Notes under the pieces: generated by a model
Told to the model about the DNA's origin: nothing
Database searches by the model: none
Seen by the model: only the letters and a program-made list of their open reading frames with translations
From: Thermoanaerobaculia bacterium
GTDB taxonomy: Bacteria; Acidobacteriota; Thermoanaerobaculia; Multivoradales; Multivoraceae
Reading direction: 5' to 3'
DNA: 64,000 nt
NCBI GenBank assembly: GCA_963666565.1
Contig: OY762911.1
Span: 2,368,001 to 2,432,000, forward strand
Shown here: positions 40,330-53,232 of the stretch, piece after piece
How positions within the stretch are numbered: the stretch's first letter is position 1
Layout: every line of letters begins with the position of its first letter
Program-made: the position numbers and the translations under genes

Positions 40330-40389
40330 CGTCGTTACCGCCGCACGGCAGCAAAGTGTACCGGCTGCTTCCGCTACCATCCCTGGGCG

Positions 40390-41526
40390 ATGGATTCGCT
40401 GCACGAACAGATGACCTCCTGGCGCCGGGACCTCCACCGCCACCCGGAACTCGCCTTCGAGGAGAAGGAGACGAGCCGCAAGGTGGCCGCGCTGCTCGAG
40501 TCCTTCGGCGGCATCGAGGTTCACCGCGGCCTCGCCGGCACCGGGGTCGTCGGCGTGCTGAAGTCCGGCTCGTCGGACCGCAGCATCGCGCTCCGCGCGG
40601 ACATGGACGCGCTGCCGATCGAGGAGGAGAACGAGTTCGAGCACCGCTCGCAAAACCCCGGCAAGATGCACGCCTGCGGCCACGACGGCCACACGGCGAT
40701 GCTGCTGGGCGCCGCGAAGCACCTCACCGAGAACCGCTCCTTCGACGGCACGGTCTACTTCTTCTTCCAGCCGGCGGAGGAGAAAGACGGCGGCGCCCGC
40801 GTGATGATCGAGGAAGGGCTGTTCGAGCAGTTCCCCGCCGGGGAGGTCTACGGCGTCCACAACTATCCGGGGATGGAAGTGGGCAACTTCGGCCTCTGCG
40901 CCGGCCCGATGATGGCCGCCATCGACGTCTTCGAGTTCGCCGTCACCAGTGCCGGCGGCCACGCCGCGTTCCCTCACGGCACGGTGGATCCCATCCCGAT
41001 CGGCGCCGAGATCGTCCTCGCCCTGCAGACGATCGTGGCCCGCAACGTGGACCCGCTCCACAGCGCGGTGATCACGGTGGCCCGCGTCCACGGCGGCCAC
41101 GCGGACAACGTGATCCCGAGCCGCGTCGTCCACGGCGGTTGCGTCCGGGCGTTCCTGCCCGAGGTGCAGAAGCTCGTCGAACGACGGATGCGCCAGATCG
41201 GCCGCGGCATCTGCACCGCCCACGGCGCCGGCTTCGAGTTCCAGTATCGCCACTACTACCCGGCTACCGTCAACCACGCCGAGCAGACCGAGAAGGCCGC
41301 CAACGCCGCCCGCGAAGTCGGCCGGGAAGTCACCACCAGCCTCGCCCCCGTGATGGGCTCCGAAGACTTCGCCTACATGCTCCAGGAACGCCCCGGCGCC
41401 TTCATGTTCCTCGGCAACGGCGACAGCGCCGGCCTCCACACCCCCCGCTACGACTTCAACGACGACATCCTGCCCGTCGGCATGCGCTACTGGACCACGC
41501 TGGTCGAGACGCAGTTGTGGGCGTAG
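40390..41526 (+). CDS. M20 amidohydrolase (hippurate hydrolase/aminoacylase-like)
   Basis: RRDLHRHPELAFEE, LRADMDALP, MHACGHDGH, FQPAEE, GSEDFAY, LHTPRYDFND. Confidence 0.95.
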   Translation: MDSLHEQMTSWRRDLHRHPELAFEEKETSRKVAALLESFGGIEVHRGLAGTGVVGVLKSGSSDRSIALRADMDALPIEEENEFEHRSQNPGKMHACGHDGHTAMLLGAAKHLTENRSFDGTVYFFFQPAEEKDGGARVMIEEGLFEQFPAGEVYGVHNYPGMEVGNFGLCAGPMMAAIDVFEFAVTSAGGHAAFPHGTVDPIPIGAEIVLALQTIVARNVDPLHSAVITVARVHGGHADNVIPSRVVHGGCVRAFLPEVQKLVERRMRQIGRGICTAHGAGFEFQYRHYYPATVNHAEQTEKAANAAREVGREVTTSLAPVMGSEDFAYMLQERPGAFMFLGNGDSAGLHTPRYDFNDDILPVGMRYWTTLVETQLWA

Positions 41527-42016
41527 CGACGTCGGTATCACCCGCCCGGCTTGGGGCCGCAGGGGAGGGGTTCCCAGCGGCCGCTCGCGTTCTCTCGGAG
41601 GAGGGGAAGCTGACGCTCGCTTCACTCCGCTCGCTTCGGATGGTCGGTGCGTGCGGTCAGGTCGTCGGGAGTCGCTCGCTTCGAGCCCGCGGGGAACCCC
41701 TCCCCTGCGGCCCCGCAACGGGCTAGACCTCGTCGGACCTCGCGGAACCTGAACACTGGTCGATCCCGCGCGGTACGTTCTCCCGACGACGACCAGACTG
41801 TGGTGGAGTCCGGGGAGAGGGTCCCTGGGGGCTGGAGGCAAGTGACTCCCGACAACGTTGCCGGAACCGATGCCGACGTGAAACGCAGCCGACCGAAGCG
41901 AGCGCTCACTTCTCATTCATCGGGAAAGCGCGAGCGGCCCCAGGGACCCTCTCCCCGGACTCCGCCGCAGGCGGGTGTACCCGCAGCGCTCCGCTGCGCC
42001 GCCGACGTCGCTACGC
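41521..42016. mobile_element. Nested inverted-repeat (MITE-like) structure
   Basis: Perfect IRs: 15 bp 41521-41535/42002-42016; 23 bp 41553-41575/41692-41714; 26 bp 41805-41830/41938-41963. Confidence 0.7.
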
Positions 42017-42916
42017 GCAGTTGCAGAGTTCGATGAAGAAGGCGCGGACGGTGTCGGTGAACTCCGGATTCGTCAGGGTGTTCATGTGGTTCGCGCCTTC
42101 GATGACGTGGAGGCGGTGCTCCTTCATGACGCCGACCAAGGCGTCGGCGTTGGGCTTGAGGGGATCGTCGCTGCCTATGATGTTGAGGGTCGGCACCTTG
42201 TTGACGCGGAGGAGTTCGGCGCTCACGTCGAGGCCGGCCATGCCGCGGACGACGGCGGCCAGGGCCTTCTGGTCGTTCGAGGCGACCATCGCCTGGCCGA
42301 TCGGCTGAACCTGTTCGGGCGTCGGCGGGTCGTCGCCGGGCCAGAGGAACTCGACGAGGGGGCCGCCGCCCTTGCCCGCTTCGAGGGAGGCGGCGAGCGC
42401 GTCGAACATCGCTTCGTCGCGCAGTTCGGGGCTCGGCCAGCCGGCGCCGCCGATCACGGCGGACATCAGCCGGTCGGGCGCCAGGGCGATGAGCTTCATC
42501 GCGATGAAGCCGCCCATCGAGTAGCCGACCACGTTCGCCTGCTGCAGCCGCAGATGATCCAGCAGGTCGACGACGTCGAGGGCCATGCGCTCGCCGTAGC
42601 TCTCGGCGTCGTGCGGCTTGCCGCTCTTGCCGTGGCCGCGCTGGTCGACGGCGATGACCTGGAACTCCTCGGCCAGGCGGCCGACGATGCCCGCCGCGCC
42701 CCAGTTCGAGGCGGCGGTGCCGGTGATGCCGTGGAGCAGCACGACCGGGTCGCCGCGGCCTTCGACCTGGTAGTGGATCTCGACGCCGTCGGTGGCCGTG
42801 AAGGACCGGGTTGCGGCTTCGCCCTGGGCCCAGGCGCCGGCGAAGGCGGCGAGCGCGAGCAGAGCCGTCAGGACGGCCCGGAACATCGGTCGTCGACACG
42901 TCGTACTTGTTCTCAT
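42011..42916 (-). CDS. Secreted alpha/beta hydrolase
   Basis: Signal peptide; LLHG, DQRGHGKS, GYSMGG, GSDD, GANH. Confidence 0.92.
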   Translation of the reverse strand: MRTSTTCRRPMFRAVLTALLALAAFAGAWAQGEAATRSFTATDGVEIHYQVEGRGDPVVLLHGITGTAASNWGAAGIVGRLAEEFQVIAVDQRGHGKSGKPHDAESYGERMALDVVDLLDHLRLQQANVVGYSMGGFIAMKLIALAPDRLMSAVIGGAGWPSPELRDEAMFDALAASLEAGKGGGPLVEFLWPGDDPPTPEQVQPIGQAMVASNDQKALAAVVRGMAGLDVSAELLRVNKVPTLNIIGSDDPLKPNADALVGVMKEHRLHVIEGANHMNTLTNPEFTDTVRAFFIELCNCA

Positions 42917-43091
42917 GGGGTTCCTTCGCAGGGAGCGAGGCTGGCGCCTCGGAGGTTGTCGTCCACAGGCCGGAAGACTCGCGGCTGCGGGTCGGCGAAG
43001 GCTACCAACCCGACTTGCGCCGGCCGGCGCGACCCGGCCGCTTTGCTACGCTGCCCCGCGTCGCCGATCGGATCACTGCCCGGACAAGACC

Positions 43092-43871
43092 ATGGACATC
43101 GAGAGCGCAGCACGCCGCGTCCGCGAGGACGGCTACACCGTCGAACCCGACTTCCTGGGCGAAGAGACTCTGGAGCGCCTGCGCCGCGACCTCGCCCCGG
43201 TCTTCGACGCCATCGGCAGCCGGATGACCGACGACTACGGCCAGCAGACGATCCACACGCACAACCTGCTGGCCAAGACGCGGGCCGTCGACGAACTCCT
43301 CATGGACGACCGCCTCCTGGGCCTGGTGGAGGCGGTGCTCGGCCCGGACTTCCAGGTCTCCGGCGTCGCCGCGATGCGGCCGGGACCGGGCGACCGTCAC
43401 CAGCGGATGCACCAGGACGACGGCCACTATCCGCTTCCGCGCCCGCACGTTCCGCTGATCGCCAATACGCTGGTCGCGCTGGATCCGTTCACGGCGGAGA
43501 ACGGGGCGACCGAGATCGTTCCCGGCAGCCACCGCTCGGCCGATCCGGTCGATCCCGATGTCCCCACCAGGACGGTGGAGATGCCGGCCGGGGCGCTCTT
43601 CCTGTGGGACGGCGCCGTCTGGCACCGCGGCGGCGGCAACTCGACGGAGAGCGGCTACCGCCGCTCCCTCAACTTCAACTTCAACCTGGCATGGCTCAAG
43701 CAGCGGGAGAACCAGTTCGTCGGTGTGCCGTGGGAAGTCGTGGTGGGAATGCCCGAGAAGCTGCAGGCGTTGATCGGTTACAAGCTGACGAACCGCGGCC
43801 TCGGCACGGTGGACTACCGCAATCCCATCGAGACCGTGAAGCGGCGGGTCGCCGGGGCCGGGGGTTCCTGA
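43092..43871 (+). CDS. Phytanoyl-CoA dioxygenase family (Fe/2OG) protein
   Basis: EDGY, HQDD, ALDPFTAENGATEIVPGSH, WHRGGGN, R..L; likely start ATG 43092. Confidence 0.9.
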   Translation: MDIESAARRVREDGYTVEPDFLGEETLERLRRDLAPVFDAIGSRMTDDYGQQTIHTHNLLAKTRAVDELLMDDRLLGLVEAVLGPDFQVSGVAAMRPGPGDRHQRMHQDDGHYPLPRPHVPLIANTLVALDPFTAENGATEIVPGSHRSADPVDPDVPTRTVEMPAGALFLWDGAVWHRGGGNSTESGYRRSLNFNFNLAWLKQRENQFVGVPWEVVVGMPEKLQALIGYKLTNRGLGTVDYRNPIETVKRRVAGAGGS

Positions 43872-43923
43872 CGCGACCGCGGACCGCGCCGCGCGAAGAC
43901 GCAAAGACAAGGGGAGAATCCAG

Positions 43924-44391
43924 ATGACGGCAGCATCCGCGGCGGAAACCGGGAACAGCGACGCAAGAGCGCGGTCGGCGGTGGAATCCGCCGTCGACAA
44001 GGCCCACAAGGTGGCGCTTGCCGGAGTCGGCGCGGCGAGCGAGGCGGCCGATGCTGGGGCCAAGGTCTTCGACCGGCTGGTCGCGCGCGGCGAGAAGGTG
44101 GAGAGCCAGGGCCGGGAGTCCCTGAGCGGCTGGCGGGACAAGGCCGAGGAGAAGGTCCAGCAGGTGCGAGCCGCGGCCGGGAAGGGCTTCGTGCAGACCC
44201 GGGCCAAGGCGCAGGCCGGGATCGACGGCGAGCTGGAACGGCGGCTGGAGCGGCTGGGAGTGCTTGGCAAGGCGGACCTGGAGGCCGTGATCGAACGGTT
44301 GAGCGCGATCGAGGCGCGGCTCGAGGCGCTGGAGAAGCCGAAGCCGCCGCGCCGGCGCACGGCCAGGAAGGCGTCACCGAAGGCCGGCTAG
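43924..44391 (+). CDS. Phasin family (PHA-granule associated) protein
   Basis: KVALAGVGA, KVFDRLVARGEKVE, LERLGV..KADLE, basic tail. Confidence 0.75.
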   Translation: MTAASAAETGNSDARARSAVESAVDKAHKVALAGVGAASEAADAGAKVFDRLVARGEKVESQGRESLSGWRDKAEEKVQQVRAAAGKGFVQTRAKAQAGIDGELERRLERLGVLGKADLEAVIERLSAIEARLEALEKPKPPRRRTARKASPKAG

Positions 44392-44466
44392 CGCGGCAGA
44401 AGGCCCGGAAGCCGGCGCTTCGCGCCGGATGCCGGCGCACCCGGTTGCTGCCGCGCAGGCTCCTGG

Positions 44467-47379
44467 TTAGGCCGAGCGTCGGCGTCTCGCTCGTCGTTCC
44501 GTCCTGACGGCGCGCAGGCACTCGCGCACCGTAGCTGGCCGGGCGCCCTCTCGAATGCGCTCGTCCGCCAGTTCGAAGGCCATCCGCCACTGTCGCCGCA
44601 GGATCGTGTGGGCGGCGAAGAAGCCGTAGCGGGGGTCGTACATGTGGGTCGCCTCCGATGTCACGCCGTTCACTTCCAGCACTCGGAGACCTTCGCCGCA
44701 CTGGAGCGCCTCGGCGCTCGGGACACGCACGTCGAAGCGGCCGAAGTCGAAGCCGTCGTACGTGGCGCAGATCGCGTTCATAGCCCGTTCCAGTTCGGGC
44801 GTGTGCAGCTCGTTCGCGTCGAGGAAGATCGTCCCGCGGGAGTGCGCGCCGACTTCGGTCAGCTCGACTTCTTCGCCGCCGGCGGGGACGCGCGTCGCCG
44901 CCTCGGGGTGTTCCCGCCGGTAGGTGTGCGCGATGGCGACCGCGCGCGGGTCGTCCAGGATCAACCGTTCGAGGGTGCTGGTTCCGTCGCCGGTCACGAT
45001 CGGCCGGACCTTGTGCGCGATCGAGAAGACGTGCCCGTCGCGTCGGCCCGGATGGCGGGCCCAGAACACGCCGTACTCCTCGCCGTCGACGTACTCCTGC
45101 GCGAGCGCGGCCCCGGGGGTCGCCTCGAAGAACGCCGCCGCGTCCGCCTCGGAGCGCGCGACGGCGACGCCGCGGCCGCGCTCGCCGGTGTTCGGCTTGA
45201 GCACGACCGGCCAGTCCAGTTTCTCCTCTTCCAGGAGTCGCCGCAGCACCGCCACGCGTTCCTCGGGGCCGCCCGGCGGCAGCCGCCGCCACGCCGGCAG
45301 CGCCTCGCCGATGCCGGCCAGCCCTTCCAGGATGTCGCTCTTGGACTCGCCCACCAGGCCGCCGAGCGGCATGGCGGGGTTGATCGCGGTGAACGCCGTC
45401 AGGCTGCCGCGCCGCAGGCCCTGCCAGAGGATGTAGAGCGCGAGCGGCGGGTAGAACGCCCACATCGGCCAGAACTCCCAGCGGCGGACCCGCAGCACCC
45501 GGCCGCGCCAAGCCCGGCGGCCCCGCCAGGTGAACAGCGGTACGACGACGGTGCGGACGGCGACGATCGCGAGCGCCAGCGCCAGCACGGCGCCGGGAAG
45601 GCCGCCCGGCAGGCGGCCGCCGAAGCGCTCGACCGCCTCGCGCCCGACGAGCGCGTTGACGCCGACGAACAGGGGAGTCCAGATCGCCGCGGCGACGGCG
45701 AAACAGAAGGTGAACTTGAGCAGGCTGGTGCGGAGGATGCCGGCGGCGAGGCACGTCGCCAGGCGCGTTCCGGGCAGGAAGCGGCTGACCAGGACGACGA
45801 CCAGCGCCCGCCGCCGCAGCCACGCGGACGCCTCCTCGACCGCGGCCTCCTTGACCCACCACCTGAAGGGCGGAATGCGCAGTGCCGGCCGTCCCAGGAC
45901 GCGGGCGAGCCAGGCGATGAACACATCGCCGCTCAGCAGGCCGACGTAGCAGGCGGCGACGGCGACGGTGAAGTCGAGGCGGCCCTGGGCCACGAGCAGG
46001 CCGGCCGTGACGCAGGTCAGATCCTCGGTGACGTACGCCGCGAACACGAGGAGCAGGAAGACGATCAGCAACGCGGGCCCGACAAACGGCGGCAGGTCCA
46101 TGTCGTCGAACGGCAGCGCGGCGCGCGGCCGGCGTTCCGGCTCGGCGTCGCCGCGGCGGACGGCGGTTCCGTTCTCGACCCGGCTCAGGAAGTCGTCGAT
46201 GCGAGCGGCGAGGTCGGGCCTCGGAGGTTCGTTCCCCGCGTCCCGCGTCGAGTATGCGGTTTCGCCGCCGCCGAAGATGAAGAAGTGGCTGTCCGGCCGC
46301 ATCCACAACTCGCTGTGGGGCACGATCCGGTGGTGCTCGAGCGCCGCCGCCGCCGGCACCAGCGGATCCCGCTCCCCGTGGATGATGAACACGGGCGCTT
46401 CGAGCGCCTCCAGGATGCCGCGCAAGGGCCGCTGGTCCGTGTCGTAGAAGTTGCGGGCGTAGGAGCGGGCGGAAGAGCTGTCGAACAGGCCGAAGTGGGG
46501 AACCAGGTTCCGCATCGTCCAGAGCAGGCCGAGCTGCAGTCCATGCAGGGCGTGGTTCACCGTGTAGTCCCCGAGCAGTTCGAGCTCCTGCACGCCGACC
46601 GACGACACCAGGACGACGGATGCGACTCGGTCGGGCGCGTGGTCCACGAGATGCAGGGCGACCGCGCCGCCCATGCTGAAACCGAGGACGTGGAACCGGT
46701 CGACGGCCAGCCGGTCGAGCAGCTTCAGCGTCGAGTCCGCGTGGCCGCGGGCCGAGTAGTCGGCGACCCCGCGCTCCGAGGCGCCGAAACCCGGCAGGTC
46801 GGGCGCGATGGTCCGCCGTTCGCGGTCAGGGACTCTGAGGTAGAGGCGAACGTCGCTTCGTCGTTCGTCGGCGTCGTCCGGCTGGAGTCGCTGTGCCGCC
46901 AGGGACTCGAGCCGGCGGCTCATGGGCGATCCCTCGAAGACGATCGCGTCGCCGGGGGATCGGCCGTCGACCCGCGCGTCGGGCGCCGCGGGACGTGGGT
47001 CTCGTCCGGCGCCGCTGTCCGCCTGACCGCTCTGGAGCTCGTTGCCAGCCTGCTCGACGAATGCTCGAAGCGTCCAGGCGGCCTGTAGCCGGTTGAAGTT
47101 GTCGGCGGTGCCGGGAGAACCGTGGAGCAACACGAGCGGCAACCTGGCCTCCTCGGTTCCCTGCGTCTCCTTCCACGCGATGCGGAGCGTGCCGTCTCCG
47201 CTCGGCGTCGGGATCTCCATCGTTTGCCGGTTGGGCGGAAGCGGGGCCTCGGGCGCGGCGATCCGCGCCGCCGTCGAGACGACGAGCGCGGAGGCGTAGA
47301 CGGCGAGCAGGACGCGCAGCCAGCGGCGGCCGTGGGACGCGGCCGGTTGGAGCGGTTCCGAAGCGGCCCGTTCAGCCAC
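44467..47379 (-). CDS. Triple fusion: alpha/beta hydrolase + DedA/VTT membrane domain + ATP-grasp ligase
   Basis: LLHGSPG, PDLPGFG, GFSMGG, HGERD; EDLTCVTAGLL...SRFLPGTR; VLKPNTGERGRGV, QEYV, FGRFDVR, LEVNG. Confidence 0.85.
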   Translation of the reverse strand: MAERAASEPLQPAASHGRRWLRVLLAVYASALVVSTAARIAAPEAPLPPNRQTMEIPTPSGDGTLRIAWKETQGTEEARLPLVLLHGSPGTADNFNRLQAAWTLRAFVEQAGNELQSGQADSGAGRDPRPAAPDARVDGRSPGDAIVFEGSPMSRRLESLAAQRLQPDDADERRSDVRLYLRVPDRERRTIAPDLPGFGASERGVADYSARGHADSTLKLLDRLAVDRFHVLGFSMGGAVALHLVDHAPDRVASVVLVSSVGVQELELLGDYTVNHALHGLQLGLLWTMRNLVPHFGLFDSSSARSYARNFYDTDQRPLRGILEALEAPVFIIHGERDPLVPAAAALEHHRIVPHSELWMRPDSHFFIFGGGETAYSTRDAGNEPPRPDLAARIDDFLSRVENGTAVRRGDAEPERRPRAALPFDDMDLPPFVGPALLIVFLLLVFAAYVTEDLTCVTAGLLVAQGRLDFTVAVAACYVGLLSGDVFIAWLARVLGRPALRIPPFRWWVKEAAVEEASAWLRRRALVVVLVSRFLPGTRLATCLAAGILRTSLLKFTFCFAVAAAIWTPLFVGVNALVGREAVERFGGRLPGGLPGAVLALALAIVAVRTVVVPLFTWRGRRAWRGRVLRVRRWEFWPMWAFYPPLALYILWQGLRRGSLTAFTAINPAMPLGGLVGESKSDILEGLAGIGEALPAWRRLPPGGPEERVAVLRRLLEEEKLDWPVVLKPNTGERGRGVAVARSEADAAAFFEATPGAALAQEYVDGEEYGVFWARHPGRRDGHVFSIAHKVRPIVTGDGTSTLERLILDDPRAVAIAHTYRREHPEAATRVPAGGEEVELTEVGAHSRGTIFLDANELHTPELERAMNAICATYDGFDFGRFDVRVPSAEALQCGEGLRVLEVNGVTSEATHMYDPRYGFFAAHTILRRQWRMAFELADERIREGARPATVRECLRAVRTERRARRRRSA

Positions 47380-47478
47380 CGACGCCCTCGACGGTTCGGG
47401 CGGGCGGGCCGGTTGCCGGCCGTGCGACGTCGCCCGCCGCGGGTCCGCTGCGCGATGGCTGCCGCATCGTTCCGGGGA

Positions 47479-48324
47479 TCAGTCGCGCGGGATCTCGGCG
47501 CGGCCGTACGCGTCGCCGACGGCCGCAAGTTCTTCGCTCGTCACCATAGGCCGGAAGGCGTCCGTCATCCGCTCGTGCAGGCGCCGGGCGAGGTCCTTAC
47601 GGTCGGCGCCGCGGAGCGGTTCGCTCCCGAAGGCGATCTCGGCGTCGATGCGGCGAAGTTGGAGCAGTTCGGGGGCGTGGGGCGTCAGCGCCATGTTGCC
47701 CCACCAGGCGATGCTGAGGAAGGCGGGCCGTTCGTCCTCCGGCGTCTCGTACCGGAGCACGGCCCAGTCGACCGGGACGCCGGCTGCGGCGGCCGGCGCC
47801 AGCAGCGACGGCTTGAGCGTCGCCACGGCGTCGCCGGGCGTCGACGTGCCCTCGGGGAACAGGATCACGGAGTCGCCGCCCGCGAGCGCCTCGGCGATCT
47901 GGCTTCCTACCCGGGTCACATCGCGGCGTCGGCCCCGGTCGACGAAGATGATGTCCACGGTACGGCACATCGCGCCGGCCAGCGGCCAGTCCCGGATCTC
48001 CGCCTTCGAGACGAAGCGCCCCGGAGCGAACGCGGAGAGCAGGAGAATGTCGACGTAGGAGAGGTGGTTCGAGACCAGCAGGAACGGCCCGCTCGGCGGT
48101 GCGCCGCGCACCGTCGCCCGGCAGCCGAGGATGGCGAGACTGGCGCGGCCCCAGCGCCGCAGTACCGCGCGCCGGAACCTCCGCCAGGCCCCGGGCGATC
48201 GGCGGAGCAGGAAGGGACGGAGGATCAGCAGGGGGAACCAGGCGGCCAGCGCCGCCAGCAGCAGCGCCGTTGCCCGCCAGATCATCCGGCCGAGCCGGAC
48301 GGTCCTGCTGCCTCGAGGCGTCAT
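47479..48324 (-). CDS. Lysophospholipid/lyso-aminolipid O-acyltransferase (PlsC/OlsA-like)
   Basis: SNHLSYVD, FVSKAEI, FVDR, LFPEGTS; ATGA-coupled to the GNAT gene. Confidence 0.92.
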   Translation of the reverse strand: MTPRGSRTVRLGRMIWRATALLLAALAAWFPLLILRPFLLRRSPGAWRRFRRAVLRRWGRASLAILGCRATVRGAPPSGPFLLVSNHLSYVDILLLSAFAPGRFVSKAEIRDWPLAGAMCRTVDIIFVDRGRRRDVTRVGSQIAEALAGGDSVILFPEGTSTPGDAVATLKPSLLAPAAAAGVPVDWAVLRYETPEDERPAFLSIAWWGNMALTPHAPELLQLRRIDAEIAFGSEPLRGADRKDLARRLHERMTDAFRPMVTSEELAAVGDAYGRAEIPRD

Positions 48325-49346
48325 CCTCGGCGCGGCGCCGCGGCCTCGCTCACGGCTGCCGCCGTCCGGTTCGCGTCCGCGGGCTTCGTGGCCTTGCCTG
48401 CCGGCACCGCCGCTTCGTCAGCCGGCCCGGCCGTTCGCGCCGGCGGTTCGTGCGCCGTCGCTCCGTCGTCCAGGCCGAAGATCAACCGGGTCCTGCGGCT
48501 GAGAGTGGCCGTGTCCATCAGCACCAGGTAGTCGATCGTCTTGAAGTCGCGGTCGATCGCCGGCTGGCTGCAGACGAGGGCGCCGTAGCGGAGGTAGGTC
48601 GCGAACAGCGGCGGAATTTCTACCTTGGGACCGCCGTAGGCCAGATCCGACCCGCACTGGGTGCGCGGGTCTTCCGACCCGCTGCCGCCGAAGGCGGCCT
48701 CCGGCTCTGGCGGCACCTCGCAGCGGGCGTGCTCAAGGACCGGCACGTCGAGATCCGGGCGGACCTTGCCAGCCTCGACGAGTTGCCGGTAGAGGCGGAC
48801 GCCCGCCGCTTGGTCCTGGCTGGTCAGCGAGCAGCAGCCGAACAGATAGCGGAGCCGGTTGTGGACCACGTAGCGGGCCAGGCCCTGCCAGAGCAGGAAG
48901 AGGACCGTCCGCTTCCGGTGCCGGCGATGGATGCAGGCGCGGCCGATCTCGACCGACCGGTCGAGTACGCCGCGCGGCAGGGCGTCCAGGTCGTACTCGA
49001 TGGCCGAGTAGAAGCCGGCGCCGCGCACCGCCATCGCGGCCGTCTGCATCCGGTAGGTGCCGATCGTCGTGCCGTCCGTCCGCTCGACCAGCATGTGGTG
49101 GCAGCTTGCGTCGAACTCGTCCGTGTCGCGGCCGGCTTCCCAGGACTCGTCAAGTCCCTCGCCCAGCTCGCGATTGAAGACCTCGAAGCGGAGCTGGAGC
49201 AGCCGGTCGATGTCGGCGGCGGTGCGGGCGAAGCGGAGCCGGTAGCTGCCGGCCTGGATCCGGCCTTCGGGCAGGCACTCGGGGCTGGGGATGGCGTGGC
49301 CGCTCAGACCGGCTGCCGCCGCGTTGTCGCGCACTGGCTCAGTCAT
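48321..49346 (-). CDS. OlsB-like GNAT N-acyltransferase (amino-lipid synthesis)
   Basis: LRFEVFNRE, DEFDASCHHMLV, GTYRM, GFYS..EYD, EIGRACI, YLFGCCS, IPPLF.TYLR.GA, PAIDRDF. Confidence 0.88.
   Translation of the reverse strand: MTEPVRDNAAAAGLSGHAIPSPECLPEGRIQAGSYRLRFARTAADIDRLLQLRFEVFNRELGEGLDESWEAGRDTDEFDASCHHMLVERTDGTTIGTYRMQTAAMAVRGAGFYSAIEYDLDALPRGVLDRSVEIGRACIHRRHRKRTVLFLLWQGLARYVVHNRLRYLFGCCSLTSQDQAAGVRLYRQLVEAGKVRPDLDVPVLEHARCEVPPEPEAAFGGSGSEDPRTQCGSDLAYGGPKVEIPPLFATYLRYGALVCSQPAIDRDFKTIDYLVLMDTATLSRRTRLIFGLDDGATAHEPPARTAGPADEAAVPAGKATKPADANRTAAAVSEAAAPRRG
48658..48699 (+). repeat. REP-like family 1 copy in frame inside the GNAT coding sequence
   Basis: TGGGTGCGCGGGTCTTCCGACCCGCTGCCGCCGAAGGCGGCC, encoding [14 protein letters not shown] on the minus strand. 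Confidence 0.93.
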
Positions 49347-50301
49347 TGCCACTCGCAGCCGTGGACGGATTCGCTGGATTGGAGACGATGAAGGATGGGG
49401 ACGTGGCGCGTGTCGGCTTGATGAGGAACGTCCGCAGGAAGAGGCGATTGTCGCGTCGCCTCAGGTTTCCCCACACTTCGATCGGTTCGCCCACCCACTC
49501 GAGAACCTCGTGTCCCAAGGGTTGCCCCTGCAGATTCAGTAGATGAACCAGGCTTCGCTCACCGCTTTCCGTCCCCACCAGGAGCGCGGCCGGAATGCCG
49601 CCGCGGATGCAGAGCGAGGCGCAGTCCCGGTGGGGCTTGCCGCGGCCCGGCTTCATGGCGCCGAGATAGCACTTCGTGTCGACGATTTCACCCACAAGCC
49701 TGTGTCCGCTCATGCGAATGACGTTGGTTGCCGCGCCGGGCAGGGGATTCGCTTCGGACCCGGCACCGACGTTCTCGTCGTCGAGGGGCGGCGCCCAGGT
49801 CGCCGGGCCGGCCGGAGCATCCGGCTCGACGGCGGGTCCAGGTTCGGCGGCTCCTTCGGGAAGCTCAAGGGAATGCACTTCGAGCATGGCCGCTTCCGGG
49901 TTCCGGATCGACGTGCCTGAGAGCGCGGTCTCTCTGGACGGCGACGGCGTCCAGGGCGGGCTGGACTCGCTCCGGACGTCGAGTCCGTGCTTGCCGGTGC
50001 CGACCAGCAGATAGCCCTCGGCCGGTCCGTCCGCCGTGATCAGCCGGGGATGGGGATCGACGAGCAGTTCGCCTTCGTAGTCCCGTACGGTTCCGTACTC
50101 GAACACGCCCTCGTCGAACCGCTCCAGTAGCAGGGCCAAGCCGAGGCCGACCGCCGCCGCCAGGACCACTAGGCCGACGGCCGGCCGGCGTACGAACCGG
50201 CGGATGCCAGGGGCCGTCTCGTCGACGTAGCCGACGTAGAAGTCGTGTGGCGCGTTTCGCGCCACACGCGACCCGGTCCGTGTGCGAGTCAGCGAGCGCA
50301 C
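49339..50301 (-). CDS. Membrane-anchored hypothetical protein with Cys/His motif
   Basis: DFYVGY, one TM helix, GEIVDTKCYLGAMKPG.GKPHRDCASLCIRGGIP; stop overlaps GNAT start; start uncertain. Confidence 0.75.
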   Translation of the reverse strand: MRSLTRTRTGSRVARNAPHDFYVGYVDETAPGIRRFVRRPAVGLVVLAAAVGLGLALLLERFDEGVFEYGTVRDYEGELLVDPHPRLITADGPAEGYLLVGTGKHGLDVRSESSPPWTPSPSRETALSGTSIRNPEAAMLEVHSLELPEGAAEPGPAVEPDAPAGPATWAPPLDDENVGAGSEANPLPGAATNVIRMSGHRLVGEIVDTKCYLGAMKPGRGKPHRDCASLCIRGGIPAALLVGTESGERSLVHLLNLQGQPLGHEVLEWVGEPIEVWGNLRRRDNRLFLRTFLIKPTRATSPSFIVSNPANPSTAASGND

Positions 50302-50329
50302 GGATCACACTCGTCCTGGCGGCCGCCAG

Positions 50330-51394
50330 TCACGAAGGCTCCTCGGCGGCGGCGGCGGCGGCGGCGGCGGCGTCGACGCGGGCCGGCTCGGCGGGGGTTC
50401 CCGGCGGATTGGGCCGCGGATCGACCAGCACCCGGCCGTCCGCGACGCGTACGTTGAAGGTTGGAATCGTCTCGGTGAAGGGCGGCGGCGAGCAGCCGTC
50501 CTCGGGACGGTACTGGTAGCCGTGCCACGGGCAGGTGATGCAGCCGTCGATGACCCGGCCTTCCCCCAGCGGGCCGTTCTGGTGCTGGCAGACGTTGGAG
50601 ACGGCCGCGATCCTCTCGCTGTCCTCGGTCCGGTAGCGGAAGACGGCCACGCGTTCGCCGCCCAGCACGAAGATGCGGGCGCGGTCGAGCGGGATGTCCG
50701 CGGCCGCGCAGACGAAGACGGCGGCGGCCTCCGGGGCGCGTTCGCGCCAGCCGGCCAGGAGGTGCAACGAGGAGATGCCGGCGAAGCCGATGCCCAGCAG
50801 AACGGCGAGCGCCGGCGGTCGCTCCGGGGCCTGCAGGCTGCCCAGCGCAACGTGCACGAGGATCAGTCCGTACGCGACGTAGACCAGCATGTGGAGCGAC
50901 TTCCAGACCGGCGCAGTGAGGTTCGCCAACCAGAAGTCGTGCGAGGTCGCCGCCATCAGGAACAGGATGACCAGCGCCGCGAGGCCGAGCGCCTGGAAGG
51001 GAAACTGCGACAGGCTGTCGTAGTTCCCGTTGCTCGCCAGCACGCTGACCAGGGGGTTCAGGACCCCGAGGCCGTGGAACTGGACGATCGCGAAGCCGCC
51101 GTGCGCGAGCGCCAGCAGGAACGTGCAGACGCCGAGGTGGCGGCGGTTGTAGAGCAAGGGAAGGAAGCGCCGGTCCAGCCGGCAGAGCGGTCCGATGGCG
51201 AGTACGACGTGGAGCAGCAACAGGGCGGCCGCGCCAAAGCCGCGGATCAGCAGCGTCTCGATCGTCGCCTGGGGCCGGGTCGCCATCCCGACGGCGACGA
51301 AGAGGCCGAGGAACGCCAGGACGCCGGCCGCGACCGTCAGGTCGTACAGCTTCTTGTTGCGGTTCCAGAGGACCGCCTGGTAGCCGGCGCTCAT
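50330..51394 (-). CDS. Ferric-reductase-like (MsrQ-type) transmembrane domain fused to Rieske 2Fe-2S domain
   Basis: LYNRRHLGV, MAATSHD, WKSLHMLVY..H heme ligands; CQHQNGPL...CPWHG Rieske motifs; C-terminal 9-Ala run. Confidence 0.9.
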   Translation of the reverse strand: MSAGYQAVLWNRNKKLYDLTVAAGVLAFLGLFVAVGMATRPQATIETLLIRGFGAAALLLLHVVLAIGPLCRLDRRFLPLLYNRRHLGVCTFLLALAHGGFAIVQFHGLGVLNPLVSVLASNGNYDSLSQFPFQALGLAALVILFLMAATSHDFWLANLTAPVWKSLHMLVYVAYGLILVHVALGSLQAPERPPALAVLLGIGFAGISSLHLLAGWRERAPEAAAVFVCAAADIPLDRARIFVLGGERVAVFRYRTEDSERIAAVSNVCQHQNGPLGEGRVIDGCITCPWHGYQYRPEDGCSPPPFTETIPTFNVRVADGRVLVDPRPNPPGTPAEPARVDAAAAAAAAAEEPS

Positions 51395-51654
51395 GGATCG
51401 GCGCGTTCCTGGCCGGTTTCGGCGTCTCTGGCGGCGTCTGAAGGGGGCGGTGCTCCGGACCCTCGCGCTTCGTTCCGCGGCGGCTGATCGTCGGGATCGT
51501 TGGCCGGCGTCTCCGCGGCTCTGCGTGGCTCGGGCAACTCGTCCATGAGCGGCGGCTCGGGCCTGGACAGCAGGGCGAGCGCCAGCAGGATCGCCACGAT
51601 CGGAGACAGCACCGCCCACGCGAGGCGGTGGCGGCGCCGCAGACGGCGGATCAC
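51391..51654 (-). CDS. Small single-TM hypothetical protein
   Basis: RRLRRRHRLAWAVLSPIVAILLALALL; GTGA and ATGA overlaps on both sides. Confidence 0.7.
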   Translation of the reverse strand: MIRRLRRRHRLAWAVLSPIVAILLALALLSRPEPPLMDELPEPRRAAETPANDPDDQPPRNEARGSGAPPPSDAARDAETGQERADP

Positions 51655-51929
51655 CCGGAACTCCGTTCGGCGCCGCCGCCGGCCGCGTCGCGATGCGCGT
51701 TGCGCTCCACCGGCGGCGGGCGGCCGGCGATCCACCGCCGCAGCAGCACGGGCCACAACGCCGCGACGCCGGGAAGAACGATCAGCCGGAAGCCCCATCC
51801 GGCCGATCGCGCGGCGGGATCGACCCGGCCGGCGCCGCGCCAGACGAAGAAGAGCGAGAAGGCCAGCCCGCAGGCGATGTACACGGTGCAGAGCAGCACG
51901 ACGACCTCGGCGGCGCGCACGATGGACAT
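51651..51929 (-). CDS. Small two-TM hypothetical protein
   Basis: YIACGLAFSLFFV...VDPAA...GFRLIVLPGVAALWPVLLRRW. Confidence 0.72.
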   Translation of the reverse strand: MSIVRAAEVVVLLCTVYIACGLAFSLFFVWRGAGRVDPAARSAGWGFRLIVLPGVAALWPVLLRRWIAGRPPPVERNAHRDAAGGGAERSSG

Positions 51930-51974
51930 CGCCGCGAGTATACGCGGGCATCGCGCCGGGTCGTCGTCGCGGAC

Positions 51975-51999
51975 TGGGTGCGCGGGTCTTCCGACCCGC
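51975..51999 (+). repeat. REP-like family 1 copy in divergent promoter region
   Basis: TGGGTGCGCGGGTCTTCCGACCCGC. Confidence 0.9.
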
Positions 52000-52065
52000 T
52001 CTGCCGTAGACTCCGCATCCGTGCGCATCTCCGACGATGTACGACTGGACCCCGAGGACGACGAC

Positions 52066-53232
52066 ATGCCCAGACCGATTCACGCTACGGCGACGACGCG
52101 CGAAGGAGCGCCGGGTTTGCCGCTGCTTCGCTGCGACTGGATCGCCGCACTCGCCACCCTGACGTTGGCCTTCGCGCTGCCGGCGGCCGGCCAGGACGCG
52201 GAGAACATGACCGTCGAGGCCTACGAGCCGCGCTCGACGCTCAAGGTGCCGGGCGGCCCGGTGACGCGCGCGAAGTTCCCCTTCGTCGACGCTCACGGCC
52301 ACATGCGCGGCAGCGACCCGGCCCGGGTCGACCGGATGGTCCAGGTCATGGACGAGCTGAACATGGCCGTGTTCGTCAACCTGAGCGGCGGCTCGGGCGA
52401 GCGTCTCAAGGCGAACATCGCGGCGACGAACGGCCGGTATCCGGGACGGTTCGTCGTCTACGCGAACGTCGACTTTTCGGGCATCGGCCAACCCGGCTGG
52501 GGTAAGAAGGCGGCGGCGCAGCTCGAAGCCGACGTTGCGGCCGGCGCGCAGGGCCTCAAGATCTACAAGAACCTCAGCATGTTCCAGACCGACAGCGCGG
52601 GGAAGAGGGTGGCGGCGGACGACCCACGGATCGCGCCGGTGTGGGAGAAGGCGGGCGAACTGGGAATTCCGGTGCTCATTCACGTCGGCGAACCGTCGGC
52701 GTTCTGGGACCCGTGGGACGAGCGCAACGAGCGCTGGCTCGAACTCAAGATGTTCCCGAACCGCCGCCGCGACGACCCCAAGCGCTTCGCATCGTTCGAG
52801 CAGACGATGGGCGAGCAGCACAACCTGTTCCGCAACCACCCGAACACGACGTTCATCAACGCCCACCTCGGCTGGTTCGGCAACGACCTGGCGCGGCTGG
52901 GCAAACTGCTCGACGAGCTGCCGAACGTCTACACCGAACTCGGCGCCGTCCTCGCCGAACTGGGCCGGCAGCCGATCACGGGCGCCGCCTTCCTGGAGAA
53001 GTACCAGGACCGCGTCCTGATGGGGAAGGACTCATGGGATCCGATCGAGGGCTACCACGTCTACTTCCGGGTGCTCGAGACGCGGGACGAGTACTTCGAC
53101 TACTACCGCAAGCGCCACGCCCACTGGAAGATGTACGGGCTCGGCGTGTCCGACGAGGCGCTCGAGAAGATCTACTTCCGCAACGCGCTGAAGATCATCC
53201 CCGGCCTCGACCGGAGCCTCTTCCCGGAGTAG
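52066..53232 (+). CDS. Secreted amidohydrolase (Amidohydro_2 family)
   Basis: Signal peptide; DAHGH, GLKIYK, PVLIHVG, HPNTTFINAH, DRVLMGKD, KIYFRNA. Confidence 0.88.
   Translation: MPRPIHATATTREGAPGLPLLRCDWIAALATLTLAFALPAAGQDAENMTVEAYEPRSTLKVPGGPVTRAKFPFVDAHGHMRGSDPARVDRMVQVMDELNMAVFVNLSGGSGERLKANIAATNGRYPGRFVVYANVDFSGIGQPGWGKKAAAQLEADVAAGAQGLKIYKNLSMFQTDSAGKRVAADDPRIAPVWEKAGELGIPVLIHVGEPSAFWDPWDERNERWLELKMFPNRRRDDPKRFASFEQTMGEQHNLFRNHPNTTFINAHLGWFGNDLARLGKLLDELPNVYTELGAVLAELGRQPITGAAFLEKYQDRVLMGKDSWDPIEGYHVYFRVLETRDEYFDYYRKRHAHWKMYGLGVSDEALEKIYFRNALKIIPGLDRSLFPE

Follow-up and report, generated by a model that had tools for sequence, protein, structure and literature searches.

A protein joining hydrolase, DedA and ATP-grasp domains is linked to OlsB/OlsA-like acyltransferases: a candidate module for aminolipid modification in environmental bacteria

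What might a protein that joins an alpha/beta serine hydrolase, a DedA/VTT membrane domain and an ATP-grasp domain do beside two acyltransferases resembling those of ornithine-lipid synthesis? The question is raised by a locus on contig OY762911.1 of a Thermoanaerobaculia bacterium (Acidobacteriota; GenBank assembly GCA_963666565.1). It lies within a stretch of 64,000 nucleotides (positions 2,368,001 to 2,432,000, forward strand), which was analysed as a whole and is called the window here. The window has about 70% G+C, and the genome is a single 4.79-Mb contig with a completeness of 97%. Aminolipids replace phospholipids in many environmental bacteria. An earlier, sequence-only reading of the locus had proposed a module that makes an acylated amino-acid lipid, extends its head group by ligation, flips it and remodels it. 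That interpretation is partly supported by the analysis presented here: the genetic link of the fusion protein and its ATP-grasp domain to aminolipid genes is strongly supported, and the biochemical reading of the module is plausible on sequence grounds. The proposed aminolipid pathway variant, built around a large uncharacterised protein family, is new.

The three core genes are the following:

48321..49352, minus strand: OlsB-like N-acyltransferase (GNAT, PF13444); 343 amino acids (aa) from the GTG at 49352, 341 aa from the ATG at 49346
47479..48324, minus strand: OlsA-like O-acyltransferase (PlsC/LPLAT family, PF01553); 281 aa
44467..47379, minus strand: fusion of an anchor helix, an alpha/beta serine hydrolase, a DedA/VTT domain and an ATP-grasp domain; 970 aa

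Linkage of the fusion protein to aminolipid genes

Synteny had been named beforehand as a test of the proposal, and the fusion was found to be syntenic with the acyltransferases. The window proteins were compared by tblastn with 80 fusion loci, 65 of which have at least 3.5 kb of upstream sequence. Both OlsB and OlsA lie upstream of the fusion, on the same strand, in 47 of these 65 loci (52 of all 80 loci); OlsB only is found upstream in 5/65 (6/80) and in another arrangement in 3/65 (4/80), both genes occur in another arrangement in 1/65 (1/80), and OlsA only in 2/80. Altogether, an OlsB-like gene is present within 7 kb of the fusion in 56 of the 65 loci. When fusion genomes without adjacent OlsBA genes were checked, 5/5 carried PF13444 elsewhere, four of them in frames of about 620 aa, the size of OlsF. 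The 80 loci come from Acidobacteriota, Gemmatimonadota, Planctomycetota, Verrucomicrobiota, Kiritimatiellia, Rhodothermia, KSB1, Myxococcota and Chloroflexota; all of them (80/80) belong to metagenome-assembled genomes, the closest being those of 'Candidatus Multivorans' and Thermoanaerobaculia. As the pairing of OlsBA with the fusion recurs across many environmental bacterial phyla, it suggests an undescribed way of modifying aminolipids.

The association was also analysed at the level of whole genomes, with carriers of the ATP-grasp domain defined by a match at E≤1e-20. Among 201 Acidobacteriota genomes, 25 carry the ATP-grasp domain and 49 carry PF13444, the latter being present in 24/25 carriers and in 25/176 of the rest. 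Among 151 Gemmatimonadota genomes, the corresponding numbers are 16 and 32, and PF13444 is present in 16/16 carriers and in 16/135 of the rest, many of the matches in these non-carriers being weak and partial. For the combined samples, PF13444 is found in 40/41 ATP-grasp carriers and in 41/311 non-carriers.

Relatives shorter than the fusion were then considered. None of 11 such proteins has a hydrolase match; a DedA match lies directly upstream of the ATP-grasp domain in 7/11, and 4/11 consist of the ATP-grasp domain alone. Beside 4 of the 11 there is an OlsB-like gene, and 7 have DinB- or TANGO2-like genes as neighbours. Since the ATP-grasp domain is kept beside OlsB/OlsA or beside DinB/TANGO2-like genes in relatives that have no hydrolase, it is, as judged from these comparisons, the constant partner of the aminolipid genes, the hydrolase being a later addition.

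All three open reading frames (ORFs) were recovered as the sequence-only reading had described them: Pfam recognises PF13444, PF01553, Abhydrolase_1 and VTT_dom, and the ATP-grasp domain is recognised by profile comparison with the PDB. The G+C content at third codon positions (GC3) is 0.86-0.90 for the OlsB-like, OlsA-like and fusion ORFs. The reported ATGA overlap of the two acyltransferase genes can be read in the sequence, where it is shared by the OlsB-like TGA and the OlsA-like ATG, and the gap to the fusion, given as 100 bp, measures 99 nucleotides (nt) from the OlsA-like stop to the fusion start. An ATG is indeed present at 49346, where the OlsB-like gene had been said to begin, but its frame starts two codons earlier, with the GTG at 49352. 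The description of the locus as three genes had the genes right but missed two co-oriented genes upstream. On the basis of GC3 and homology, the minus strand carries a co-oriented run of five genes, in the order Rieske/MsrQ-like, 320-aa protein of no known family, OlsB-like, OlsA-like and fusion.

The OlsB-like protein matches the GNAT family PF13444 with 97.2 bits (1e-27; cut-off 22.4), and its gene is the sole PF13444 match in the 4.79-Mb genome; its C-terminal tail is rich in Ala and Pro. The OlsA-like protein is assigned to its family by PF01553 (74.4 bits, 9.7e-21; cut-off 23), by the motifs HX4D (H87-D92) and PEGT at 157, and by adjacency to olsB. The best NCBIfam matches of both proteins are ornithine-lipid equivalog models, which bears out the labels OlsB-like and OlsA-like, but the scores are well below the equivalog cut-offs: 126.5 against 350 and 123.4 against 320 bits for OlsB, and 136.9 and 117.6 against 300 bits for OlsA. 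The OlsB-like protein scores 66.8 bits with the OlsF model (cut-off 620). Judged by these profiles, the two acyltransferases are of the OlsB and OlsA kind; with scores at about 40% of the equivalog cut-offs, the acceptor amino acid cannot be named from sequence. A clade of their own for the fusion-linked OlsB-like proteins, which would have hinted at a new head group, was considered and rejected, as the tree of these proteins shows no separate clade. In three fusion-less Acidobacteriota genomes (L106, L107 and L109), OlsA-like genes lie on both sides of the OlsB-like gene, a differing local layout of aminolipid genes.

How large is the family to which the fusion belongs? A word-indexed search with the fusion, in which 8,000 candidates were scored, returned 1,174 proteins at E≤0.001, and the three-domain architecture was found again in more than 1,000 database proteins. 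Among the 120 matches listed, lengths range from 707 to 996 aa and nearly all proteins have both hydrolase and VTT Pfam domains, the exceptions being three with VTT alone and one with hydrolase families alone; their names are only automatic, such as 'alpha/beta fold hydrolase'. A stored homologue in the ESM Atlas led only to automatically named clusters with the same architecture. An exhaustive search with the ATP-grasp profile gave 5,208 representatives (clusters at 50% identity) at E≤0.001 and 1,675 at E≤1e-30. Among the best 150 of these 1,675, 54 have at least 440 residues before the motif WEFWP (hydrolase plus DedA), 43 have 170-439 residues (DedA only) and 11 have fewer than 170 (stand-alone forms that start with a basic stretch and WEFWP); the other 42 have no match to the exact WEFWP motif pattern used. 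A very large family (1,675 representative clusters at E≤1e-30), with automatic names only, is tied in this way to aminolipid synthases by gene order and by genome co-occurrence.

Domains and predicted topology of the fusion protein

The fusion was divided into the following parts:

47251..47322, minus strand: anchor helix TM0, aa 20-43, from hydropathy; predicted N-in
46120..47232, minus strand: alpha/beta hydrolase domain, aa ~50-420, PlaF-like by profile comparison with the PDB; predicted to be periplasmic
46825-47091, minus strand: insert in the hydrolase, aa 97-185, ~89 aa, charged and of low complexity, from the alignment of 20 sequences
45481..46107, minus strand: DedA/VTT domain, aa 425-633, from PF09335, hhalign to YqjA, hydropathy and charge
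44470..45480, minus strand: ATP-grasp domain, aa 634-970, from profile comparison with the PDB and invariant residues

Residue invariance was judged on 20 homologues with 45-82% identity to the fusion of the window. The motifs of the fusion had been described as intact, and the catalytic residues of its three domains are in fact invariant in all 20, a conservation that we judge from the alignment to be far beyond chance. For the hydrolase, the invariant residues are HGSPG (H86, with H86-G87 as the oxyanion motif), GFSMGG (S235), D338 and H365; a GxSxG nucleophile, an acid/His triad and an oxyanion HG motif are therefore all present, and the motifs align to those of PlaF. The Pfam score of the fusion with Abhydrolase_1 is 84.3 bits. 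When the hydrolase profile was compared with the PDB, PlaF (6i8w) was matched at 6.7e-24 through positions 49-307 of the profile and residues 41-315 of the chain, with GNSMGG, GDRD and CGH of PlaF aligning with the Ser, Asp and His of the hydrolase family. The best PDB score was obtained with the polyhydroxybutyrate (PHB) depolymerase 8ynv (3.4e-25), a match that covers mainly the N-terminal half of the hydrolase fold. The insert at aa ~97-185 separates the HGSPG strand from the conserved strand that comes next; it is present in 3/20 aligned sequences, which are close relatives of the window only.

The DedA domain is recognised by VTT_dom (PF09335) with 47.2 bits, above the cut-off of 33.9, and has the conserved acidic and basic hairpin residues of the family: E452, D453, R533 and R539 are invariant. 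Its layout comprises two hairpins, the first re-entrant and holding E452/D453, the second holding R533/R539; a helix that spans the membrane and a cytoplasmic basic loop separate them, and two further membrane-spanning helices follow. Using hhalign, residues 12-178 of E. coli YqjA were aligned to residues 420-581 of the fusion with a probability of 91%; D51 of YqjA aligns to D453 and R130 to R533, and R136 falls beside R539 at the same 6-residue spacing. The equivalent of YqjA E39 falls in an alignment gap; E452 is nonetheless invariant. With the NCBIfam equivalogs of UptA, the scores are 61.4 against 250 and 33 against 300 bits, far from those of a UptA equivalog.

A strongly basic stretch comes before the ATP-grasp domain, which opens with an aromatic segment, WEFWP...YPP; in the stand-alone relatives, the basic stretch and WEFWP are both retained at the N-terminus. 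Pfam RimK gives 19.1 bits with the whole fusion and 21.1 bits with the domain alone, for a cut-off of 21. A profile built from 30 sequences (A2) was searched against the PDB and matched 7ta5 (1.4e-9), the GshAB structure 3ln6 (2.2e-7), cyanophycin synthases (3.4e-7) and 8fxh (4.4e-7), and D-Ala-D-Ala ligases at about 1e-4 to 1e-6. The Lys strand VVLKP and the E-x-N site ELNG align to solved ATP-grasp structures, and K728, E902 and N904 are invariant, so that an ATP-binding Lys, the E-x-N metal ligands and a core recognisable by profile place the domain in the ATP-grasp superfamily. It belongs to none of the NCBIfam ligase families compared: the cyanophycin synthetase model scores 35.4 bits (3.1e-9) against 850, the RimK family 19.6 against 143.4 and GshAB 14.4 against 425. 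Cyanophycin synthetase, GshAB and D-Ala-D-Ala ligase activate the carboxylate of a peptide or an amino acid.

To which side of the membrane would the two enzyme domains be exposed? According to the accessibility data in bioRxiv 10.1101/2021.10.18.464800, cysteines at A20, S52, V59 and V180 of YqjA are periplasmic and those at V99, L117 and G217 cytoplasmic, and the consensus topology given there is N-out/C-in. The EVfold section of the same preprint speaks of a 'cytoplasmic N-terminus', contrary to its own consensus and accessibility data; the data are used here. Residue A20 of YqjA aligns to D428 of the fusion, just before the DedA core, and as A20 is periplasmic, the hydrolase preceding the core should be periplasmic and the ATP-grasp domain following it cytoplasmic. 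The latter location fits the need of the domain for ATP. PlaF itself is anchored by an N-terminal helix and exposes its catalytic domain to the periplasm (PMC9132575). Over the 20 homologues, the mean net charge is +2.5 before TM0, -0.8 after TM0 and -0.3 ahead of the DedA core; the loop at 493-524 has +4.6, the loop at 579-595 has +0.3 and the part after the last helix +7.0. The predicted arrangement is that of a hydrolase facing the periplasm and an ATP-grasp domain facing the cytoplasm.

Proposed reactions and rival explanations

Taking these results together, we propose that the core formed by the OlsB-like enzyme, the OlsA-like enzyme and the fusion would make and then process an acyloxyacyl amino-acid lipid, by head-group ligation, translocation and remodelling on the outside; on the evidence of the genes and their domains, we consider this proposal evenly balanced between right and wrong. 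From family membership, the OlsB-like GNAT would N-acylate an amino acid with a 3-hydroxyacyl chain, ornithine being the default guess, and the OlsA-like enzyme would O-acylate the product. The cytoplasmic ATP-grasp domain, held at the membrane by DedA and by its own basic and aromatic N-terminal segment, would then phosphorylate a carboxylate and form an amide. The most likely substrate would be the free carboxylate of the head group, to which an amine or amino acid would be attached, in the manner of the ATP-dependent transfer of taurine that leads to cerilipin; the joining of an amino-acid carboxylate to the head-group amine would be less likely. The DedA domain would move the lipid between leaflets and, in the outer leaflet, the PlaF-like hydrolase facing the periplasm would remove an acyl chain or the added group, or transfer an acyl chain.

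The nearest solved relatives of the ATP-grasp domain are carboxylate-activating amino-acid and peptide ligases, which we counted in favour of head-group ligation. ATP-dependent ligation of an aminolipid head group has been known since the 1970s from cerilipin synthesis and has never been assigned a gene. As stated in a 2026 review, the transfer of taurine to the head-group carboxyl of ornithine lipids is ATP-dependent and its gene is still unknown, and the known modifications of aminolipids are five, this addition of taurine without a gene included (PMC12971839). We regard the statement on taurine transfer as the strongest outside support for head-group ligation. It is tentatively suggested, as an idea that may well prove wrong, that the ATP-grasp domain could represent the ATP-dependent ligases of aminolipid head groups, a class long missing, and that the fusion would modify the lipid inside, flip it and trim it outside, with dipeptide-type or amidated aminolipids as products in Acidobacteriota, Gemmatimonadota, Planctomycetota, Verrucomicrobiota and other environmental phyla. 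If so, the products would occur in phyla where such aminolipids have not yet been sought. Should the ATP-grasp domain modify the head group, dominant phyla of soil, sediment and wastewater would have a new class of lipids, an old open question would gain a candidate type of enzyme, and a DedA domain would be assigned to an aminolipid for the first time.

The sequence-only reading knew of no characterised pathway with this architecture, and none was found in the literature: a combination of OlsBA with a hydrolase-DedA-ATP-grasp protein is not described in the full texts searched, the supplements of which (for instance those of PMC12493201 and PMC12971839) may list relevant neighbourhoods. In sections 4-5 of a 2024 review (PMC11631085), the aminolipid enzymes are only OlsB/A, OlsF, GluB, GlsB and SalA, and ATP-grasp enzymes appear there only as possible activators of fatty acids. 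The terms 'ATP-grasp', 'DedA' and 'flippase' do not occur in PMC12971839.

Several observations weigh against the proposed module. Neither OlsB nor OlsA was found within 7 kb of the fusion in 9/65 loci (15/80 of all loci); one ATP-grasp carrier reported to be 100% complete (G073) has no PF13444 match; and the 40 in 41 co-occurrence comes from samples in which related genomes are not independent. In a tree of 79 OlsB-like sequences, built without a characterised reference, fusion-linked and unlinked proteins are intermixed, and the fusion-linkage label needs 6 changes. The hydrolase is absent from many relatives and is thus dispensable for the module. DinB-like and TANGO2-like partners, which are common elsewhere, were found neither in the window nor in its genome when the proteins of locus L030 were used as queries. 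With regard to the fusion itself, the limits and topology of its domains were derived from hydropathy, charge and homology; the matches of the ATP-grasp domain to curated families are weak, and its substrate cannot be read from sequence. The best curated matches of the DedA domain are models of undecaprenyl-phosphate transporters (UptA), and we know of no DedA protein that moves aminolipids.

Some of the same evidence can be arranged differently. The PlaF-like domain could cleave an ester-linked fatty acid from an aminolipid or phospholipid, the DedA domain could bring the lyso-lipid or the fatty acid back to the inner leaflet, and the ATP-grasp domain could re-activate the fatty acid as an acyl-phosphate to be used in a new acylation, in a recycling of acyl chains analogous to the Lands cycle. 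PlaF, to which the hydrolase is matched over its full length, is a phospholipase A1 that remodels membrane lipids, and ATP-grasp enzymes can activate fatty acids as acyl-phosphates, for example when acyl-histidine is formed (PMC11631085). Such recycling is nevertheless unlikely, taking into account that the ATP-grasp domain persists beside OlsB/OlsA in relatives without the hydrolase and that its nearest solved relatives are named amino-acid or peptide ligases, not activators of fatty acids.

It is also conceivable that the ATP-grasp domain acts before acylation and makes a head-group precursor, either a dipeptide or a modified amino acid, which would then be N-acylated by the OlsB-like enzyme. 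Among the nearest solved relatives are ligases with soluble amino acids or peptides as substrates (D-Ala-D-Ala ligase, GshAB), and the position of the OlsB-like protein far below the ornithine-specific equivalog cut-offs leaves room for an unusual acceptor. A soluble substrate is however hard to reconcile with fusion to a lipid transporter and with a membrane tethering that is kept, as the basic stretch and WEFWP, even in stand-alone forms; the OlsB-like proteins of fusion-bearing and fusion-less genomes are, in addition, intermixed in the tree. We hold this order of events to be quite unlikely.

A variant of the proposed module would assign another activity to the alpha/beta hydrolase domain, that of an acyltransferase adding or swapping an ester-linked chain. 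By its description it recalls OlsI (Sinac_1601), an enzyme from the superfamily of alpha/beta hydrolases that O-acylates lyso-ornithine lipid in a planctomycete pathway (PMC12493201), and OlsB without a detectable OlsA is found upstream of the fusion in 6/80 loci. The variant is improbable, as the window, like most loci, already has a gene for an OlsA-like enzyme and the predicted periplasmic site offers no donor of the acyl-ACP (acyl carrier protein) or acyl-CoA (coenzyme A) type.

Improbable to the same degree is that the fusion serves another envelope process, such as the recycling or modification of polyprenyl-phosphate-linked intermediates, and adjoins olsBA only through a shared regulation of envelope remodelling: the UptA models are the best curated matches of its DedA domain (61.4 bits), and nine of 65 loci have no nearby OlsB/OlsA, those of Verrucomicrobiota lying beside sugar-nucleotide genes, but the UptA scores are far under the cut-off of 250, the co-occurrence with PF13444 is near-complete (40/41 against 41/311) and the unlinked genomes checked (5/5) still carry an OlsB/OlsF-type gene.

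Neighbouring genes and comparison with known systems

The two further genes of the run are:

50330..51394, minus strand: Rieske/MsrQ-like membrane protein, first gene of the run, from Pfam, NCBIfam and tblastn
49339..50301, minus strand: 320-aa conserved protein of no known family, from translation and tblastn

The first combines a haem-b membrane domain of the MsrQ/ferric-reductase kind with a ferredoxin-type Rieske [2Fe-2S] domain. In Pfam it matches Rieske at 1.1e-14 and Ferric_reduct at 8.5e-14; its NCBIfam matches, to MsrQ (1.3e-10) and to Rieske ferredoxins, are all under cut-off. Its frame is open to 51619; tblastn homologues align from about residue 73-76, and Met76 corresponds to 51394. 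The 320-aa protein consists of a single hydrophobic helix at the N-terminus, a middle part of low complexity and a C-terminal domain that contains Cys; it has no Pfam, NCBIfam or PDB match, and tblastn finds it with 54-72% identity in close relatives and with 29-40% in other phyla. The stop of its gene overlaps the OlsB-like start. Both genes always occur together and are found upstream of the OlsB-like gene in 28 of the 60 loci with at least 6 kb upstream, in several phyla. No Rfam match was obtained within window positions 41000-53000, and a promoter and terminator scan of 43800-51900 gave 0 promoter-like sites and 1 terminator-like site (2.2 expected).

In other phyla, different genes accompany the fusion. 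A DinB_2-like gene lies directly upstream of it in 46/80 loci and a TANGO2-like gene in 33/80. Such genes stand between the OlsA-like gene and the fusion in L015, L022, L030 (L030:5524-6021 and L030:6022-6753), L073 and others, and stay beside the fusion even where OlsBA is missing, as in Verrucomicrobiota. The TANGO2-like proteins have an invariant Met-Cys-Thr start and NRDE, as expected of a Cys N-terminal-nucleophile hydrolase.

Downstream of the fusion, a phasin gene (43924-44391, plus strand) and a gene for a PhyH-family dioxygenase (42792-43871, plus strand) are convergent with the run; they are followed by a second alpha/beta hydrolase gene (42011-42916, minus strand) and by the gene for leucyl-tRNA synthetase (LeuRS). 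The LeuRS frame (37654-41916, minus strand) comprises 1,420 aa, with Pfam matches that start only at residue ~553, and its long N-terminal part is probably a mere open frame in high-GC DNA, outside the protein. The phasin, PhyH and second-hydrolase neighbours (41913-44391) are kept in close relatives only (L006-L016). A polyhydroxyalkanoate role for the fusion's hydrolase, suggested by the downstream phasin and by the best PDB score with a PHB depolymerase, was dropped as the principal explanation, since the 8ynv match covers mainly the N-terminal half, that to PlaF is full-length and these neighbours are confined to L006-L016.

With the OlsB/OlsA pathway of ornithine lipids, and its GluB and GlsB variants, the locus shares an adjacent, translationally coupled pair of PF13444 and PF01553 genes, for which the OlsB and OlsA models score best among curated families. 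What sets the locus apart is a large accessory protein joined to this pair, which is absent from the text of sections 4-5 of PMC11631085 and did not come up when PMC12971839 was searched by terms. The taurine transfer of cerilipin synthesis in Gluconobacter cerinus is an ATP-requiring amide formation on the head group of an aminolipid, as would be expected of an ATP-grasp enzyme linked to olsBA; the window comes from an acidobacterium, and the likeness is one of chemistry.

Each domain of the fusion can be compared with proteins that have been characterised. PlaF, the membrane-bound phospholipase A1 of Pseudomonas aeruginosa (6i8w), likewise places an alpha/beta hydrolase behind an N-terminal anchor, with Ser, Asp and His aligned over the full length; in the fusion, however, the hydrolase sits between the anchor helix and the DedA core, and the lineage of the window has the ~89-aa insert. 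With the DedA family (YqjA, UptA) the fusion shares PF09335 above cut-off, invariant equivalents of YqjA D51, R130 and R136, and an N-out/C-in core that fits the flanking domains; it is not a UptA equivalog, and carries a large insertion on the periplasmic side and an enzyme domain at its C-terminus. Its ATP-grasp core, with the conserved Lys and E-x-N metal site, aligns to ligases of the cyanophycin synthetase, GshAB and RimK type, from which it differs in being very divergent (best E 1e-9), membrane-tethered, endowed with a WEFWP...NP...GESK segment of its own and placed in no curated family.

For the fusion as a whole, the closest parallel is one of logic. MprF is a synthase and flippase of aminoacyl-phosphatidylglycerol, which is accompanied by periplasmic hydrolases such as AcvB/PA0919. 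There, as is proposed for the fusion, a cytoplasmic domain that modifies the head group is fused to a lipid translocator, and a periplasmic hydrolase does the trimming. Folds and chemistry are unrelated: MprF is tRNA-dependent and acts on phosphatidylglycerol, whereas the fusion combines an ATP-grasp domain with DedA and has all three parts in a single chain.

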